The notes under the pieces are model-generated. The model was not told where the DNA came from and did no database searches. It worked only from the letters and a program-made list of their open reading frames with translations. Source: a virus (lineage: Duplodnaviria; Heunggongvirae; Uroviricota; Caudoviricetes). Taken from it: a DNA stretch of 40,258 nucleotides. Positions 6,584 to 35,099 of the stretch are shown one piece after another. The stretch's first letter is position 1, and the number at the start of each line of letters is the position of its first letter. The translations under genes were made by a program, and so were the position numbers. The stretch lies in the IMG/VR virus record IMGVR_UViG_2651869695_000011; one strand, 5' to 3'.

Positions 6584-6739
6584 ATGCGTTAAGCACAGCC
6601 ATATCCGAATTATGGTGGGCTGGGCAGGGGTCCGAAAGGACGCCGGTACCACTTAGGCCGGTACGCCAACCTTGTCCAGTTCACCACCAGTAATTGGCGT
6701 TGCGGTGGTGATTAAAATCACTAAGTGGAGATAACCACC

Positions 6740-7450
6740 ATGGCTAATGCTCAAACTGCCATCTTCAAATTTGAATCTGTTAACCCTATCCGTTCCATCA
6801 TTATCGATGGCCAACCATGGTTTGTAGCCCAAGACGTTTGTAGTGCGCTGCGTATCCAAAACGTCACCCAAGCACTTGAAAAACTGGATGATGATGAAAG
6901 GTCTATGTTCAACATAGGGCATGAACATCGTGCAATTTTTGACAGCCGAGTAAAAGAGATCAACATCATCTCCGAGTCAGGCCTCTACACACTGATCCTC
7001 CGCTGCCGCGATGCGGTGACACCAGGCACTATCCCCTACCGCTTTCGTAAATGGGTTACAGGTGAGGTTCTTCCTCAGATCCGCCGCACCGGAAGTTACA
7101 TTAAAAACTCGCTCCCGCAGGAAGAACGCATAAAGATGGTTGCCGACCAGGTAGCCAACGCCACAGCATCAGCAGTGATGCAGGCAATGAAGATAGAGAA
7201 CAAAACCTACAGTGCCCCACTGAAGCCCGGCTACCGCAGTCTGATTCATTCTCCGTCTGGTGTTCTCGGCCTGACGGAGAACTCACTGCTGATGAATTTG
7301 CTGAACCAGTTGCAGGAAGACGGGCACGATGTATCGGGCGCGGCGGCGGAGCTGACCACCATGTTTTGCTACATCGTTGGTGTGAGCAAATGCCTGCGTG
7401 ATATCCAGACTCACGCGGAGTACATCAACGACAAGGCTGGGTTCTTCTGA
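6740..7450 (+). CDS. Bro-N domain antirepressor-family protein
   Basis: Classical Bro-N signature (FKFESVNPIRSIIIDGQPWFVAQDVCSAL...LDDDE...ISESGLYTLIL...FRKWVTGEVLPQIRRTG); SD GGAG 9 nt upstream of ATG 6740; C-terminal domain paralogous to 6167-6424. Confidence 0.75.
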   Translation: MANAQTAIFKFESVNPIRSIIIDGQPWFVAQDVCSALRIQNVTQALEKLDDDERSMFNIGHEHRAIFDSRVKEINIISESGLYTLILRCRDAVTPGTIPYRFRKWVTGEVLPQIRRTGSYIKNSLPQEERIKMVADQVANATASAVMQAMKIENKTYSAPLKPGYRSLIHSPSGVLGLTENSLLMNLLNQLQEDGHDVSGAAAELTTMFCYIVGVSKCLRDIQTHAEYINDKAGFF

Positions 7451-13207: not shown

Positions 13208-15829
13208 TTATCGTCCTGATTGCTGGCCGTTCTGGAAAATGTTAATCAGGTTGTCGCGCTGACTTTCTGCGCTGTATTCCTTAGACTGTCCGGGAGTATA
13301 TTTCACCGGAGTATCAATGAACTTGGTAATGCTGTTCCATACTGATCGGTTGGTTGTTCCCAGTTTCGCCAGATCGTTGAACGGCACCGTAATCGGGTTG
13401 CCGTCGGCACCGTTGACGATCAGCCCGTTGAGCATCAGGGTAAGTCCTGTTTCGTCGCTGTTGGTAACCCACTGCGCATTATCACGAATGCGGGAGATAC
13501 TCTGCTCACGGTTGACCTCATCAGGTAGCCTTGGGTCACCAATAAGCGGCATAATCTGATCTGCTGACAGGTTTTTCAGATACGCATTGGCACCATCGTT
13601 AACGTCACGAATATCTATCCCTGCACGCTTAGGTAGCCGCCAAGTGCCATTGGTCTGGTACTGCTCGCCGAGGATGTCCTGATACGCCTGTTTTGCTGCA
13701 TCAGACGCCGACATTCCGCGCTGCATGTTGATGTAAGTAAGTCGTTTTCCCTGCTCGTTGAAGTTATTCCACACGGCAGTGCCACCAGGCTGAACAACCA
13801 TCGTGCCAGCAAAATCTTTCGATTGGTCATTCCATGACGAGTCGGCGCTATCCGCGTCGGTTTTCTCAAGACTGCCGCGTAAGTCAGCAGTTTTAACGCT
13901 ACGGTTTTGCCAGAGCGCATTTGCCGCGCGCGGGTTCTCGGTAGCCATGACAACCTGCAACGCAGGATAAGCGCTCTTCTGAACCTGCTGCATCACCTGA
14001 TCCGAGTATTTGCCGAACGACTGCGCCACCGACTGAATGGCCTTTACGCTAGATTCCTGCGTGTTGTCAATACGCTGCAGTACATCATTGACCATGGACT
14101 CCGGTAAAACTTTTTTGCTCATTATCCCCAGGCGGTCTTTTTCAGACTGTATTCGGGAAACTAGGTATTCACCAGATGAAGGGTCATTCAGGTACTGCTG
14201 GAATGCAGCCTGCACAACCGGAGAGTTTTGTTGCAGCCATGCCCCCGGATCCGCTTCCCGCGCCTTCAGTACCTGCCCAAGCTTGACCTTTGCCGATGCA
14301 TAAAGCTCTGCTTTGTATTTAAAGTCAGGGTCGTTTTCCTGCGGTGCCATTGCCTGCACGGCGGCGGTACCCTGCTGGACGTTGCCCTGCATAATGGTCT
14401 GATAAACAGGTTGTAGCGTCATTGCCTGCTGGTATTGCTGGAAGGTTTTTTCCATCTGCAGGCGCTCGGCAGGCGCTGCCTGAAGCGGCATAACGGCGGC
14501 CCATTCGTGCGCTGAAATAGGCGTCACCTGCTTACCGGCCTCAATTTTGGATAGGTCGTCCTGCATTCGACTCTGTAGCGCAACGCGACCGGCTGAAGCC
14601 TGCATGTCGTACATGCCAGCAACCTTGCTCATCATCTGCGACTTTTTGTCCGGACTCATGGCGTTCCAGAATGGCTGTGCGATGAGGTTTTCCATCGTCG
14701 CAGATCCAGGAATAGCTCCAGCACTGCCAGTTACTTTTGCCACATAATTGCGCGTCTCGTCGTATGGGATAGCTGCGGCAAACTGGGCGTTACTGACTTC
14801 GCCTGTGCGCGGGTCGCCAATCTGTTTAATCCAGCCGTCAACCTTTCCTGGGCCAGCGTTATAGGCAGCTACTGCCAGAACCGGGTTATTGTCGTATTTC
14901 TTCATCTGCGCGCCGAAATAAGCTTGCCCCAAGCGGGCATTATAGCGCGGGTCATTCAACCATTTATCGCGGTCCCACGGCACGCCAGCAAGGCGGGCAG
15001 CTTCGGGGCCAGTATCTTCCGTCACCTGCGCTACGCCAACAGCGCCTTTTGGCGACACCAGAGGTGTTCCGTCCTTTCCGTACTGATTTCCGCCACTCTC
15101 CTGCCAGATTATTGCAGAGAATAACTGCGCCTCACTCGGTGTATCGGTTACCTCAATCTTGCCGTTCGGACCCATCATCTGTTGATACATCGGCACATAC
15201 CACGCCTCCGCCGCACCGTTCGCGGCATTCTCGCGCCACGAAACCCAGTTCTGTTCGATCTCTTCCTGACTCTGGCCGTGGGCTTCGCCGTAAGCGATGA
15301 TGCTATGATATGCCTTCAATCCTGCCTGGTTTGCCATTGTCGGGTTACGGAACTGCATCGATAGGTTTTTTAGTGTCGCATCCTGCATATCCGCCTCATA
15401 CTGGCGAACCTGTCCTATTTCGTACCTCCCGGCCTGCGTAGTGAACTGAATGCGCTGCTGCTGCGCCTGCTGCATGAAAGCATTACGAGCCTGTTCATCC
15501 GGCAGCGACATAGCCAGTTGCTCGACCTGGGCATCAAACTGCTGCGTATACTCCTGACCTTTTCCAATAGCATTTTTCCCTTTCAGGTTAAGCAATCCTG
15601 TTTCAGGATTATTCAGCAGATCGCTGCTTATCTGACTGAGGTTAAGAGATGCCTCCTGAGCCAGAGCGATATTGGCACGCTGTTTTGCCTGCCCCAAAAC
15701 ATCAATTGCCTCTGTCCCTGCCCGAACAAAAGCATCACCAATACCTTGCTGAGAAAACGTCTGCAAGCCTGCTGACTGAACTCCACGACTCTCAACCTGA
15801 CGTCCGGATACTGTTGGTACGACTGGCAT
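13208..15829 (-). CDS. Internal virion protein with lytic transglycosylase (SLT) domain
   Basis: Motifs IIWQESGGNQ...AVGVAQV...AAYNAGPGKV characteristic of family-1 lytic transglycosylases; start set at internal ATG 15827-15829 (SD GGAGG, TAATG overlap with upstream gene). Confidence 0.8.
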   Translation of the reverse strand: MPVVPTVSGRQVESRGVQSAGLQTFSQQGIGDAFVRAGTEAIDVLGQAKQRANIALAQEASLNLSQISSDLLNNPETGLLNLKGKNAIGKGQEYTQQFDAQVEQLAMSLPDEQARNAFMQQAQQQRIQFTTQAGRYEIGQVRQYEADMQDATLKNLSMQFRNPTMANQAGLKAYHSIIAYGEAHGQSQEEIEQNWVSWRENAANGAAEAWYVPMYQQMMGPNGKIEVTDTPSEAQLFSAIIWQESGGNQYGKDGTPLVSPKGAVGVAQVTEDTGPEAARLAGVPWDRDKWLNDPRYNARLGQAYFGAQMKKYDNNPVLAVAAYNAGPGKVDGWIKQIGDPRTGEVSNAQFAAAIPYDETRNYVAKVTGSAGAIPGSATMENLIAQPFWNAMSPDKKSQMMSKVAGMYDMQASAGRVALQSRMQDDLSKIEAGKQVTPISAHEWAAVMPLQAAPAERLQMEKTFQQYQQAMTLQPVYQTIMQGNVQQGTAAVQAMAPQENDPDFKYKAELYASAKVKLGQVLKAREADPGAWLQQNSPVVQAAFQQYLNDPSSGEYLVSRIQSEKDRLGIMSKKVLPESMVNDVLQRIDNTQESSVKAIQSVAQSFGKYSDQVMQQVQKSAYPALQVVMATENPRAANALWQNRSVKTADLRGSLEKTDADSADSSWNDQSKDFAGTMVVQPGGTAVWNNFNEQGKRLTYINMQRGMSASDAAKQAYQDILGEQYQTNGTWRLPKRAGIDIRDVNDGANAYLKNLSADQIMPLIGDPRLPDEVNREQSISRIRDNAQWVTNSDETGLTLMLNGLIVNGADGNPITVPFNDLAKLGTTNRSVWNSITKFIDTPVKYTPGQSKEYSAESQRDNLINIFQNGQQSGR

Positions 15830-31666: not shown

Positions 31667-31727
31667 CTTTACCCTCGCTTATCCACATAACTTATTGATT
31701 ACATTGATAACTAAAAAGATCGTCGAT

Positions 31728-32189: not shown

Positions 32190-32990
32190 TTACTTGATAA
32201 ATCCTGACGCCTTTCCCCGCCTGTATTCCTCCATCAGCCACTGCGCCGGTGTTATTCCCCCCAGGGTGGCGGCGTTAGGCATGCACCCGAAACTTCGCCC
32301 TGGTGGATGGTAAACGTCTCTCCCTGTGTCCGGAGGTGTACTCATAGGCTCTGGCTTTGCCTGTATGCTGATCACCGGATCGGGTATCTGCTGTCCGGAA
32401 GCCACCTTTTTCGCCCAATCATCGAGCAGCCTGCGCGCGTGTTTCTCAACCTCAATCTCGCTAAGCTGGCGCTGATACATTGCACGGCGGGTATCACATA
32501 CGACCCAGTACATAACCGGATGCCGCCACGGGAATCTTTCGGGACCACCAGGATATAAACTTTTTTCCTTGCTGTACCGGTGAAACTCCGCCATCACATC
32601 GTCAATGGTGACGCCAAGAACCATCTTGCTGTCTTTACACCACTTGATAAATTGCCCTGGCGACGGCCAGAACGGAGATTCACTGGAGCGGGCGTGGCGC
32701 ATACCAGCAGAAACCTGTTCACGGGTTCGGATCCCCCCTTCGGCAAACGCAGCAATCCACTGCTGTTTTGCAGCGACTTCCTGCTCTGGCGTCTTCAGGT
32801 TGGTTACCACTGCCGCCGGAAACAGTTGTTTCAACTGTTTGAAAAGGGCATCAACAAGCCTCTCTGCTGACATGTTCACTACGTTGTCATTGTTGGTGTA
32901 CTGATGCTCATAACCTGACATGCGAGAAAGGGCTTCTCCGTCACGGTTTTGTATTGCGGTAAAAACGTTGTTCACAAGAAATCCTCCCAT
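32190..32990 (-). CDS. Replication protein, lambda P-like (helicase loader)
   Basis: Segment QWIAAFAEGGIRTREQVSAGMRHARSSESPFWPSPGQFIKWCK closely parallels lambda P (QWVLAFRENGITTMEQVNAGMRVARRQNRPFLPSPGQFVAWCR). Confidence 0.7.
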   Translation of the reverse strand: MGGFLVNNVFTAIQNRDGEALSRMSGYEHQYTNNDNVVNMSAERLVDALFKQLKQLFPAAVVTNLKTPEQEVAAKQQWIAAFAEGGIRTREQVSAGMRHARSSESPFWPSPGQFIKWCKDSKMVLGVTIDDVMAEFHRYSKEKSLYPGGPERFPWRHPVMYWVVCDTRRAMYQRQLSEIEVEKHARRLLDDWAKKVASGQQIPDPVISIQAKPEPMSTPPDTGRDVYHPPGRSFGCMPNAATLGGITPAQWLMEEYRRGKASGFIK

Positions 32991-33763
32991 GCTTCAGGGC
33001 TGTTCCAGTGCGGAACGTTGTTATCAGGTAATGTTGATTGCTTCTGTCTGCTAATCTGCAGCCGCCTTGCCAGCTTCTGCTCCCACTGTGCCTGATGGTA
33101 TGCCTTACCCTCAGCCATCCAGTAAATTCTGAATTCTGCAAGTTCCTGTGCCGTTGGCAGACTGTCCAGGTAGATCCCCTGCAATGAGCTTTTCCGAAGA
33201 AAGTCATCTGATGGCTGCCATTGTTCATGCATGACAAATTTGCCTAATTGCCCTGGCCCACCAGGAGGAACAAAGTTATTCATCACGGCGTTGTTTGCGC
33301 CGGGGTCATGAGGCACAGAATCCCCGCTTTTTGTCCTGCTCTCCCTCTCTTGGTTAAATGACTGGTTATATGACTGGTTCTGGATCCCGTTTTTGGGATC
33401 ATTCAACATCCCGTTTTTGGGTATATTCCCGTTTTCGGTAACATTACCGTTTTCGGGTTCATTACCCCCTTCCCGGTTGCCTTTAATGTTCCCGTTTTTG
33501 GTTATATTAAGAGAGAAAACCCGCACTCTTTTCGTCGCTCCCTTTCTCTCACCGGTATCTGAAATAAGCCCCATTTTCATGAGCGATATAAGCCCGGCCT
33601 GCACGGTTTTTTTATTCAGACAAGTGTCTTTAACGAGGCGTTCTATGCTGGGATAGCAGAGGTTATATTCATCGGCTCTGTCAGCCATCGAGAGCAGTAT
33701 GAGCTTTAATGACGAGCTACCTGGATCTGTCTCCCAGGCCCAATCTGTTGCATGTCTGCTCAT
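32972..33763 (-). CDS. Replication initiator, lambda O-like (N-terminal winged-helix, ori iterons in linker, C-terminal DnaT-like region)
   Basis: N-terminal DNA-binding region; Asn/Gly-rich repetitive linker encoded by iterons; C-terminal region recalled as DnaT-like; upstream of P-like gene; SD GGAG. Confidence 0.6.
   Translation of the reverse strand: MSRHATDWAWETDPGSSSLKLILLSMADRADEYNLCYPSIERLVKDTCLNKKTVQAGLISLMKMGLISDTGERKGATKRVRVFSLNITKNGNIKGNREGGNEPENGNVTENGNIPKNGMLNDPKNGIQNQSYNQSFNQERESRTKSGDSVPHDPGANNAVMNNFVPPGGPGQLGKFVMHEQWQPSDDFLRKSSLQGIYLDSLPTAQELAEFRIYWMAEGKAYHQAQWEQKLARRLQISRQKQSTLPDNNVPHWNSPEAWEDFL
33384..33503. repeat. Origin-like iteron array (CCCGTTTT[T/C]GG direct repeats) inside the O-like gene
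   Basis: Copies at 33386, 33410, 33428, 33446 (variant), 33491 spaced 18-24 bp (one gap with a degenerate copy), followed by AT-rich GGTTATATTAAGAGAGAAAA. Confidence 0.6.
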
Positions 33764-34082: not shown

Positions 34083-34108
34083 ATGAAAAGACCGCCGGGT
34101 GGCGGTCT
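34083..34108 (-). terminator. Terminator after cro-like gene (tR1-like position)
   Basis: On minus strand GACCGCC-ACCC-GGCGGTC followed by TTTTCAT. Confidence 0.5.
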
Positions 34109-34360: not shown

Positions 34361-34396
34361 AGCTATTGCCTGATATTTATTTCAGATAATAAATAT

Positions 34397-34459
34397 TCAC
34401 CCATAAGGTAACAAAAATCAAGGATAGTTACCTATGGGGTGCATTTACCTGTTGGGTAA
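34397..34459. promoter_or_regulatory. O_R-like tripartite operator between cro-like and repressor genes
   Basis: TCACCCATAAGGTAA (34397-34411), TTACCTATGGGGTGC (34428-34442), TTACCTGTTGGGTAA (34445-34459); one overlaps the candidate cro promoter. Confidence 0.6.
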
Positions 34460-34514: not shown

Positions 34515-35099
34515 ATGAAAAGTATCCAGGACGTCCGCAGGCAAAATCTCAACGACTTGATCGACCGTGAATTCAATGGTGTTCAGACGCGGATGGCAGA
34601 AAAACTTGGAACTCAGGCAAATCTGGTAAACCGCTGGGCTCTTGGCAAGAAGGTTATCGGCGACCAGGTTGCGCGAAAAATTGAAGCTGCCGCCAATAAG
34701 CCCCGTAACTGGCTTGATATCGATCGCTCGCTTTCTCAGGAAGGTTTTCAGCCTGTCGGCCCAAGCGACATTGGTCAGCTGGCGGCCCACAACCTGGAAC
34801 GCTGGATGAGCGAAAGCCGCGACCTTTCAACACAGGGAAAACTTCACCGCGCATCCGGAGTCGCCCAGGTGACAATCAGCCGCCTGTTAAACAATGAGGT
34901 CAGCGTTTCCATTTCCACCCTGGAGAATGTTGCATCTGCATTCGGGCGTCACGGATATGAACTACTGATTCACCCGCACGACCCTGCAACTATCAACTAT
35001 GACCGCTCGCGCTACGCATTGTTACCTGAAACCGAGAAAGCAAAGATCGAAAGTTACATTGAATTTGTCATCAACCAGAACGAAAAAAACAAACAATAA
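34515..35099 (+). CDS. Prophage repressor, two HTH-like segments, no recognisable S24 peptidase/autocleavage domain
   Basis: HTH-like segments at about residues 20-65 and 110-155; no Ala-Gly/Ser-Lys LexA-like C-domain; no SD within 12 nt of ATG (possibly leaderless). Confidence 0.6.
   Translation: MKSIQDVRRQNLNDLIDREFNGVQTRMAEKLGTQANLVNRWALGKKVIGDQVARKIEAAANKPRNWLDIDRSLSQEGFQPVGPSDIGQLAAHNLERWMSESRDLSTQGKLHRASGVAQVTISRLLNNEVSVSISTLENVASAFGRHGYELLIHPHDPATINYDRSRYALLPETEKAKIESYIEFVINQNEKNKQ

Follow-up and report, generated by a model that had tools for sequence, protein, structure and literature searches.

The virus record IMGVR_UViG_2651869695_000011 of IMG/VR, a stretch of 40,258 bp which we refer to as the window, is judged by sequence comparison to be the genome or prophage of a Uetakevirus resembling phages phiV10 and TL-2011b. 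We describe here an array of short direct repeats (iterons) which lies inside the gene for a predicted replication initiator and which very probably represents the replication origin of this temperate E. coli phage. Phages of the phiV10 type are in use as reporter phages for E. coli O157. The initiator gene, at 90% identity or higher, is present in 424 of 5,426 complete E. coli genomes (approximately 8%). The coordinates of the features are collected in Table 1, all positions being those of the window.

The repeat array and the initiator

The array contains CCCGTTTT(T/C)GG in five good copies and a degenerate sixth, located between 33386 and 33502 within the minus-strand initiator gene; the original prediction had reported five to six direct repeats at 33384-33503. 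A scan of the window with the 11-mer core CCCGTTTTYGG, allowing at most one mismatch, gave six matches where 1.32 were expected, a number reached by none of 100 shuffled sequences, and five of the six matches (plus-strand reading) fall within 116 bp. These five cores occupy positions 33386-33396, 33410-33420, 33428-33438, 33446-33456 and 33491-33501, the fourth of them (ACCGTTTTCGG) having one mismatch to CCCGTTTTYGG. Their starts are 24, 18, 18 and 45 bp apart, and the 45-bp gap does hold, as had been proposed, a weak half-copy. Read on the sense strand of the gene, the iteron consensus is CC(C/G)AAAA(A/C)(C)GG(G), in which an A-tract is flanked by short CC and GG arms. Tandem Repeats Finder reveals a total of three arrays in the window, two of which are located in the initiator gene (an 18-mer at 33411-33466 and a 12-mer at 33351-33379). 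The third (13410-13438; period 15, 1.9 copies, 85% matches) is found in the structural-gene half. The iteron cluster far exceeds chance expectation and dominates the repeats of the window.

Table 1. Features of the initiator locus and its surroundings (window positions; sequences are given on the sense strand of the initiator gene where so marked)
Feature	Position	Strand	Remarks
Initiator gene, 263 aa	32972..33763	-	HTH_36 N-domain, iteron-encoded linker, homologue of the DnaT C-terminal domain
N-domain coding part (aa 1-88)	33500..33763	-	Presumed iteron-binding winged helix-turn-helix
Short AT-rich patch of the original prediction	33502..33519	.	ttatattaagagagaaaa; 3 G/C in 18 bases (17% GC)
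Iteron 1	33491..33502	-	Sense ACCAAAAACGGG
Degenerate half-iteron	33470..33482	-	Sense GGCAACCGGGAAG; inside the 45-bp gap; CGGGA half alone retained
Iteron 2	33446..33457	-	Sense CCCGAAAACGGT
Iteron 3	33428..33439	-	Sense ACCGAAAACGGG
Iteron 4	33410..33421	-	Sense CCCAAAAACGGG
Iteron 5	33386..33397	-	Sense CCCAAAAACGGG, within dyad GATCCCAAAAACGGGATC; belongs to the copy-number-variable 24-bp unit
Three tandem 12-mers	33352..33380	-	Sense GAACCAGTCATA TAACCAGTCATT TAACC; immediately downstream of the last iteron in gene sense; candidate element
Purine-rich run	33321..33351	-	Sense AAGAGAGGGAGAGCAGGACAAAAAGCGGGGA; 28/31 purines; after the 12-mers
C-domain coding part (aa 172-257)	32993..33250	-	Homologous to the DnaT C-terminal domain
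Lambda-P-family helicase loader gene	32190..32990	-	Overlaps the initiator stop by 19 nt
Promoter-like site	34386..34414	-	Upstream of the cro-like gene, in the divergent region by the repressor; consensus match only

The iterons make up codons 88-126 of the initiator gene, and are thus situated in the NGN-rich linker to which they had been assigned, between an HTH_36 domain (Pfam; residues 18-67, E = 1.7e-10) and a DnaT-like domain (PF17948; residues 176-244, E = 1.1e-15, or residues 172-257 by phmmer). The locus displays the layout of a lambdoid origin: at least four direct repeats between the N- and C-domain coding parts of the initiator open reading frame (ORF), iterons of the type CCC-A-tract-GGG with a sense-strand A-tract (in the window CCCAAAAACGGG and CCGAAAACGG), and a gene for a P-type loader directly downstream. 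The product of the latter matches the Pfam family Phage_lambda_P (E = 2e-56), is 31% identical to lambda P (E = 6e-36) and finds the lambda P chains 8v9t and 6bbm in the PDB with E = 2e-31, so that the description of the downstream gene as lambda P-like was correct. All five copies in the window share one reading frame and the units of 18, 24 and 12 bp are multiples of three; the window alone therefore does not discriminate between conservation of DNA and of peptide, and it is the relatives that decide.

A terminator-like match at 33394-33413 (+) was rejected as a terminator, this being merely an iteron. An antisense ORF covering the iterons (33393-33656, +) is most likely an artefact of the repeats. 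Escherichia phage YDC107_2 (locus L006, 601-1416) has a frameshifted initiator gene, and the same antisense ORF across its iterons is annotated there as 'putative membrane protein'.

PHROG 1032 ('replication initiation protein') aligns with the whole length of the initiator (residues 1-261, E = 1.5e-102). Residues 172-257 of the initiator were aligned by phmmer with residues 85-170 of E. coli DnaT (PDB 9zbt_D, E = 6e-21), further matches being 4ou6, 4ou7, 6aep and 2ru8 (DnaT C-terminal chains, E = 6e-21 to 2e-19), and on this similarity the homology of the C-domain to its DnaT counterpart is clear. The protein as a whole was rejected as DnaT. It scores 85 bits against the NCBIfam equivalog NF002770, for which the cut-off is 201, and matches only positions 86-169 of the 179 in that profile, the N-terminal domain of DnaT being missing.

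The initiator had originally been called 'O-like', a term that suits its function and architecture and fails for its family. No match to Pfam Phage_rep_O (PF04492) was obtained at E<=0.01, compared with E = 5.7e-36 for lambda O and 6e-25 for phi80 gp15; BLASTP against these two proteins was not significant; and a C-domain of the lambda O type is absent, its place being taken by the DnaT-like domain. PHROGs 678 and 345 are matched by lambda O and the window initiator alike, and from such profile comparisons a remote common ancestry of the N-domain with lambda O and gp15 is plausible. Sequence searches of the PDB revealed no solved lambda O structure, and the N-domain profile retrieved from it only assorted winged-helix regulators (E>0.1).

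Conservation of the repeats and their flanks

Two sets of loci were compared. The first contains 80 IMG/VR loci from a scan of viral contigs, in which the N-domain is 99-100% identical; these close relatives lack diversity and were used for copy number. The second contains 80 prophage loci from a scan of genome contigs, representing different species of Gamma-, Beta-, Alpha- and Deltaproteobacteria, with N-domains 40-87% identical.

Throughout the diverse set the sense strand carries a total of 139 occurrences of CCCAAAAACGG (at most one mismatch) at +240 to +620 of the gene, versus 17 on both strands of the other 564 kb, which is an approximately 150-fold enrichment just after the N-domain coding part. 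The motif is found in frames 0, 1 and 2, often within a single gene, and the peptides it encodes in homologues include TQKR, DPKTE and PKNG. Being present in all three frames and strand-specific, the 11-mer is conserved as DNA, not as peptide. Homologues of the N-domain with 35-49% identity occur in PPompW, Vibrio H20, Edwardsiella GF-2 and Acinetobacter AP22. Each of these genes has the same core in its middle, and in three of them the first copy is in a different frame from the rest. Where a locus lacks the exact core, variant iterons occupy the corresponding position. In Acinetobacter this is ACAGTACCAACAWTGGAAC with spacings of 17 and 22, and in a Desulfovibrionaceae genome a GC-rich variant with a spacing of 22; these spacings, found with diverged N-domains, are not multiples of three. 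No iteron motif was detected in Tyrion and Salmonella phage SPN1S, homologues which have the C-domain alone in common with the window initiator. These comparisons support the view that the motif travels with the N-terminal domain, as is expected of binding sites for that domain.

HTH_36 is present in 73 of 73 N-domain homologues, always at the extreme N-terminus, and the family comprises 560 clusters at 50% identity (E<=1e-10); prophages of Gamma-, Beta-, Alpha- and Deltaproteobacteria harbour hundreds of such protein clusters. The C-domains of the 73 homologues vary, being DnaT-like in seven, Phg_2220_C in five and DnaA_N in two, while Tyrion has a different N-domain joined to a DnaT-like C-domain. 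From these combinations domain shuffling among the initiators is evident. A hybrid is found in Edwardsiella phage GF-2 (locus L010, 1501-2343), where a window-type N-domain with iterons is joined to a lambda-O-like C-domain and followed by a lambda-like P gene, a clean exchange of modules at the iteron-coding linker. SPN1S (locus L013, 1048-1863), also a Uetakevirus, has another N-domain, the DnaT-like C-domain and no CCCAAAAACGG iterons, and its initiator gene is followed by a DUF1064 gene, with no P-like gene.

Initiator genes of 792, 816, 828 and 864 nt occur among the close relatives, the differences amounting to whole units of 24 bp (peptide MLNDPKNG), 18 bp or 12 bp (NQSY). In the 80 IMG/VR loci the gene mostly measures 792-888 nt and contains four to nine iterons, six being the mode, which places the five of the window at the low end. 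A comparison of 72 close relatives reveals iteron cores that are almost invariant; the degenerate copy is the most polymorphic and the spacers vary too. Since the putative origin also encodes protein, its iteron units (18 and 24 bp) and 12-mer units are gained and lost in frame, and the linker peptide with its NGN, PKNG and NQSY repeats is altered in the process.

The last iteron is followed in 71 of 80 homologous loci by tandem units of the GAAYC type, 53 loci having three copies, and the family consensus of the unit is (A)GAAYCTAnCA(A)(T). The units are spaced by 11, 12 or 13 nt (10, 63 and 51 intervals, respectively), are spread over two reading frames in 60 of the 71 loci and are enriched approximately 130-fold compared to the remainder of the 80 loci. 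The window itself has the triple 12-mer pattern once. Across the family, A+T accounts for 87% of the 10 nt past the last 12-mer and, on the sense strand, A alone for 62%. The family-conserved flank of the array is that of the 12-mers and the purine-rich run (33321-33380), on the opposite side from the AT-rich stretch which the original prediction had singled out. The latter stretch is real: the 40-bp segment 33480-33519 has a GC fraction of 0.30, the minimum within 500 bp on either side, and the 30-mer 33482-33511 ranks at the 98th percentile of instability in the window (-33.5 kcal/mol, much more stable than the -30.3 of the AT-rich 30-mer of lambda). The patch is short, however, and lies upstream of the iterons in gene sense, on the promoter-proximal side, where it codes for the end of the folded N-domain; in the family loci AT-richness at this position is not conserved beyond the iteron's own flank.

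Comparison with known origins and interpretation

In phage lambda the origin, situated midway along gene O, combines four iterons of 18 bp with an AT-rich region of 38 bp (PMC3349717, PMC7466680). It is annotated in NC_001416; the sense-strand sequence of the iterons is ATCCCTCAAAACGAGGGA, and downstream of them comes the A-rich region. As in the window, this origin occupies the linker-coding middle of the initiator gene, with the P gene immediately downstream, and its iterons place a sense-strand A-tract between short dyad arms (ATCCCTCAAAACGAGGGA; TCCCTCAAAACGAGGGA). The unwinding side in lambda is promoter-distal, which matches the side of the conserved flank in the window. The number of iterons varies among relatives in both groups, lambda having four and the Shiga toxin (Stx) phages six (PMC7466680, PMC3349717). 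The window differs from lambda by an initiator outside Phage_rep_O with a DnaT-like domain instead of the lambda O C-domain, and also by shorter iteron arms, a much weaker AT-rich element and the extra tandem 12-mers.

The closest match to the repeats themselves is provided by phage phi80 (locus L176, JX871397), which has four annotated gp15-binding sites in the middle of gene 15 (6664-6740): AAACCGGAAACGGGAAG, TTCCCGAAAACGGGAA, TTCCCGAAATCAGGAA and TTCCCGAAAACGGTAG. Two of the four match the 11-mer core of the window with one mismatch, and TTCCCGAAAACGGGAA is almost identical to iterons 2-5. In phi80, too, the sense strand carries the A-tract and the initiator gene is followed by a loader gene (gp14) of the lambda P family, and the A-rich sense-strand stretch downstream of the phi80 and lambda iterons is found in the same place as the purine-rich run of the window. 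Unlike the window initiator, gp15 belongs to Phage_rep_O, shows no BLASTP similarity and has a C-domain that is not DnaT-like; its sites are regularly spaced at 20-21 bp and the GAAYC 12-mer triple is lacking. That near-identical iterons accompany initiators which look unrelated would mean either that the DNA-binding domains are very remotely homologous or that they have converged on one type of site.

The layout extends to more distant systems. In oriL of phage SPP1, AB-box iterons and an AT-rich unwinding element lie inside gene 38, the gene for the non-AAA+ initiator G38P, and are followed by loader and helicase genes (PMC5737612); here too the origin is embedded in the initiator gene. The C-terminal Pfam domain of G38P, Phg_2220_C, is the one carried by five of the 73 N-domain homologues, whereas hhalign detected no similarity between the N-domain and G38P. 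SPP1 furthermore belongs to another host clade and its initiator has G39P and G40P as partners in place of P and host DnaB. E. coli DnaT, the C-terminal domain of which forms helical filaments on single-stranded DNA (PMC13377028), has that domain in common with the window initiator, from which its N-terminal domain is absent. In iteron plasmids (RK2 TrfA, F RepE) and at oriC with DnaA, the initiator additionally makes contact with one strand of the repeats once these have opened (PMC4081077). These origins follow the same logic as the window, with an array of initiator sites beside tandem 12- or 13-mers that open. They differ in being intergenic, and DnaA boxes are absent from the phage origin region; the demonstrated likeness is one of layout, not of sequence.

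No DnaA boxes were found near the iterons and no cluster of them in the window, where their total count is barely above chance. The sole perfect box (TTATCCACA; 31679-31687, +) lies 1.7 kb away from the iterons, where a short gap separates two genes of the minus strand, and a single box is compatible with chance.

We consider it probable (roughly 85%) that the array is the theta-type origin of this phiV10-like phage or prophage, located inside its own initiator gene. An iteron-type origin embedded in the initiator gene, as originally proposed, is supported comparatively, by a motif that is linked to the N-domain and independent of frame, by variation in whole units, and by the match to phi80 and lambda. 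The layout resembles that of the lambda and phi80 origins and, apart from the family of the initiator, is an ordinary and expected feature.

On the model of lambda, phi80 and SPP1, the initiator would bind the iterons in several copies through its HTH_36 winged-helix N-domain and bend or wrap the DNA. This would stress the adjacent segment of 12-mers and purine-rich sequence, which would then open; analogy and family conservation together lead us to place duplex opening at 33321-33380, where the 12-mers are candidates for an unwinding element or a second recognition element. The C-domain might hold the exposed single strand as a DnaT-like filament, or dock the P-like loader, or both, and the P-like protein would deliver host DnaB. 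As in lambda, the early operon would be transcribed across the origin.

Several points weigh against an origin of this kind. No strongly AT-rich element for unwinding is present in the window: A+T makes up only 45% of the purine-rich run, and the 12-mer region (30-mer 33346-33375) reaches merely the 96th percentile of instability within the window, the AT-rich region of lambda being far less stable. The homology of the N-domain to lambda O and gp15 is weak (hhalign with 36 N-domains gave probabilities of 14% and 18%, respectively, both alignments covering the equivalent helix-turn-helix segment), and the mechanism is therefore transferred partly by analogy. AlphaFold2, given the initiator and a shallow alignment made up of its close relatives, returned a mean predicted local distance difference test score (pLDDT) of 34. 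The GAAYC 12-mers accompany the N-domain whatever the C-domain, and are thus not specifically a target of the DnaT-like domain. Finally, a full-text search of the literature produced nothing on this origin or motif, no replication experiment with phages of this group, and nothing on DnaT-like phage initiators with iterons.

The best of the alternatives, although improbable, is that the iterons are true initiator sites serving mainly for control, through autoregulation, titration or handcuffing, or a transcriptional roadblock, with opening and helicase loading taking place elsewhere. Iterons are also inhibitory or regulatory in plasmids and in lambda, where they are needed for the replication-silencing phenotype (PMC3349717), and the window array has no strong AT-rich region beside it. 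Against this stand several observations: in position, polarity and conserved downstream flank the array agrees with the proven lambda and phi80 origins; in 71 of 80 loci the last iteron is followed by a conserved 12-mer and A-rich element; and the window has no other repeat cluster, nor a cluster of DnaA boxes.

It is very improbable that the repeats are nothing more than a low-complexity protein linker (NGN/PKNG) generated by slippage and devoid of function as DNA. The single frame of the window copies, the divisibility of 18, 24 and 12 by three and the polymorphic copy number would all suit such slippage, yet across the relatives the 11-mer is read in three frames as differing peptides, is strictly strand-specific and is enriched at one position; the 12-mers are spaced by 11 or 13 nt in 61 of 124 intervals; and the motif matches sites annotated in phi80 as initiator-binding. 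Least probable of all is an array for some other DNA transaction (packaging, recombination or a host factor) that merely overlaps the initiator gene, for which nothing specific speaks beyond the general knowledge that repeat arrays are pac or recombination sites in some phages, and against which the motif follows the N-domain across podovirus-like, lambdoid, Acinetobacter and Vibrio prophages with differing neighbour genes.

Much of what an origin at this locus would entail is already known: an origin within the initiator gene, iterons, a P-like loader and variable iteron number are textbook lambdoid features, and the motif is essentially that of phi80. The current view of lambdoid replication is not overturned. 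The literature search found no description of a phiV10-like origin, of the size of the HTH_36 initiator family, of the 12-mer triple or of a DnaT C-terminal homologue replacing the lambda O C-domain. The likely origin of phiV10-like phages is hereby located, which is useful for phage engineering and for reading length polymorphism of the initiator gene. The finding also corrects a widespread annotation, since most databases name this presumptive origin-binding phage initiator 'primosomal protein I / DnaT'; 'primosomal protein I' is a misnomer in view of the helix-turn-helix N-domain, predicted to be sequence-specific, and the setting in a phage replication module. One iteron motif and origin layout are common to initiators that are not recognisably related in sequence (Phage_rep_O and HTH_36), and the presumed origin-binding module has been recombined with several helicase-recruitment modules.

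A bolder proposal, which we regard as doubtful, is that the 12-mers are a sequence-specific unwinding element read by the initiator as single-stranded DNA, that the C-domain of the phiV10 branch forms filaments on the opened strand, and that HTH_36, CCCAAAAACGG and GAAYC together define a large and apparently undescribed family of origins. If this were true, a lambda-type replicon would melt its origin by a DnaA/DnaT-like mechanism of filament formation on single-stranded DNA, and then hand the strand to P-DnaB.

The loader gene and the early region

The genes downstream of N-domain-family initiators are P-like in 16 of 54 cases, DnaB-like and IstB/DnaC-like genes being found as well. A P-like gene adjoins a DnaT-like C-domain in eight of nine loci, compared with 10 of 77 for other C-domains. 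In PPompW-like loci (L008, L146, L148, L152, L158) the P-like similarity begins approximately 160 nt before the initiator stop and in another frame. A fusion of the initiator with P was rejected for these loci, the P-like frame overlapping the 3'-end of the initiator gene in another frame; their P gene may be longer than annotated, with a substantial overlap with the initiator gene.

Upstream of the window initiator are a small phrog_1081 gene, a cro-like gene and a divergent repressor gene with two helix-turn-helix domains (34515-35099). The promoter-like site listed in Table 1 may be an early promoter, the transcript of which would cross the origin; consensus scans of the window for promoters and terminators gave counts equal to those of shuffled sequences, with no enrichment. 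A terminator-like hairpin, likewise a consensus match only, is located between the cro-like and phrog_1081 genes (34089-34108, -). The arrangement of promoter-like site and hairpin recalls that of pR and tR1 upstream of the replication genes of lambda.

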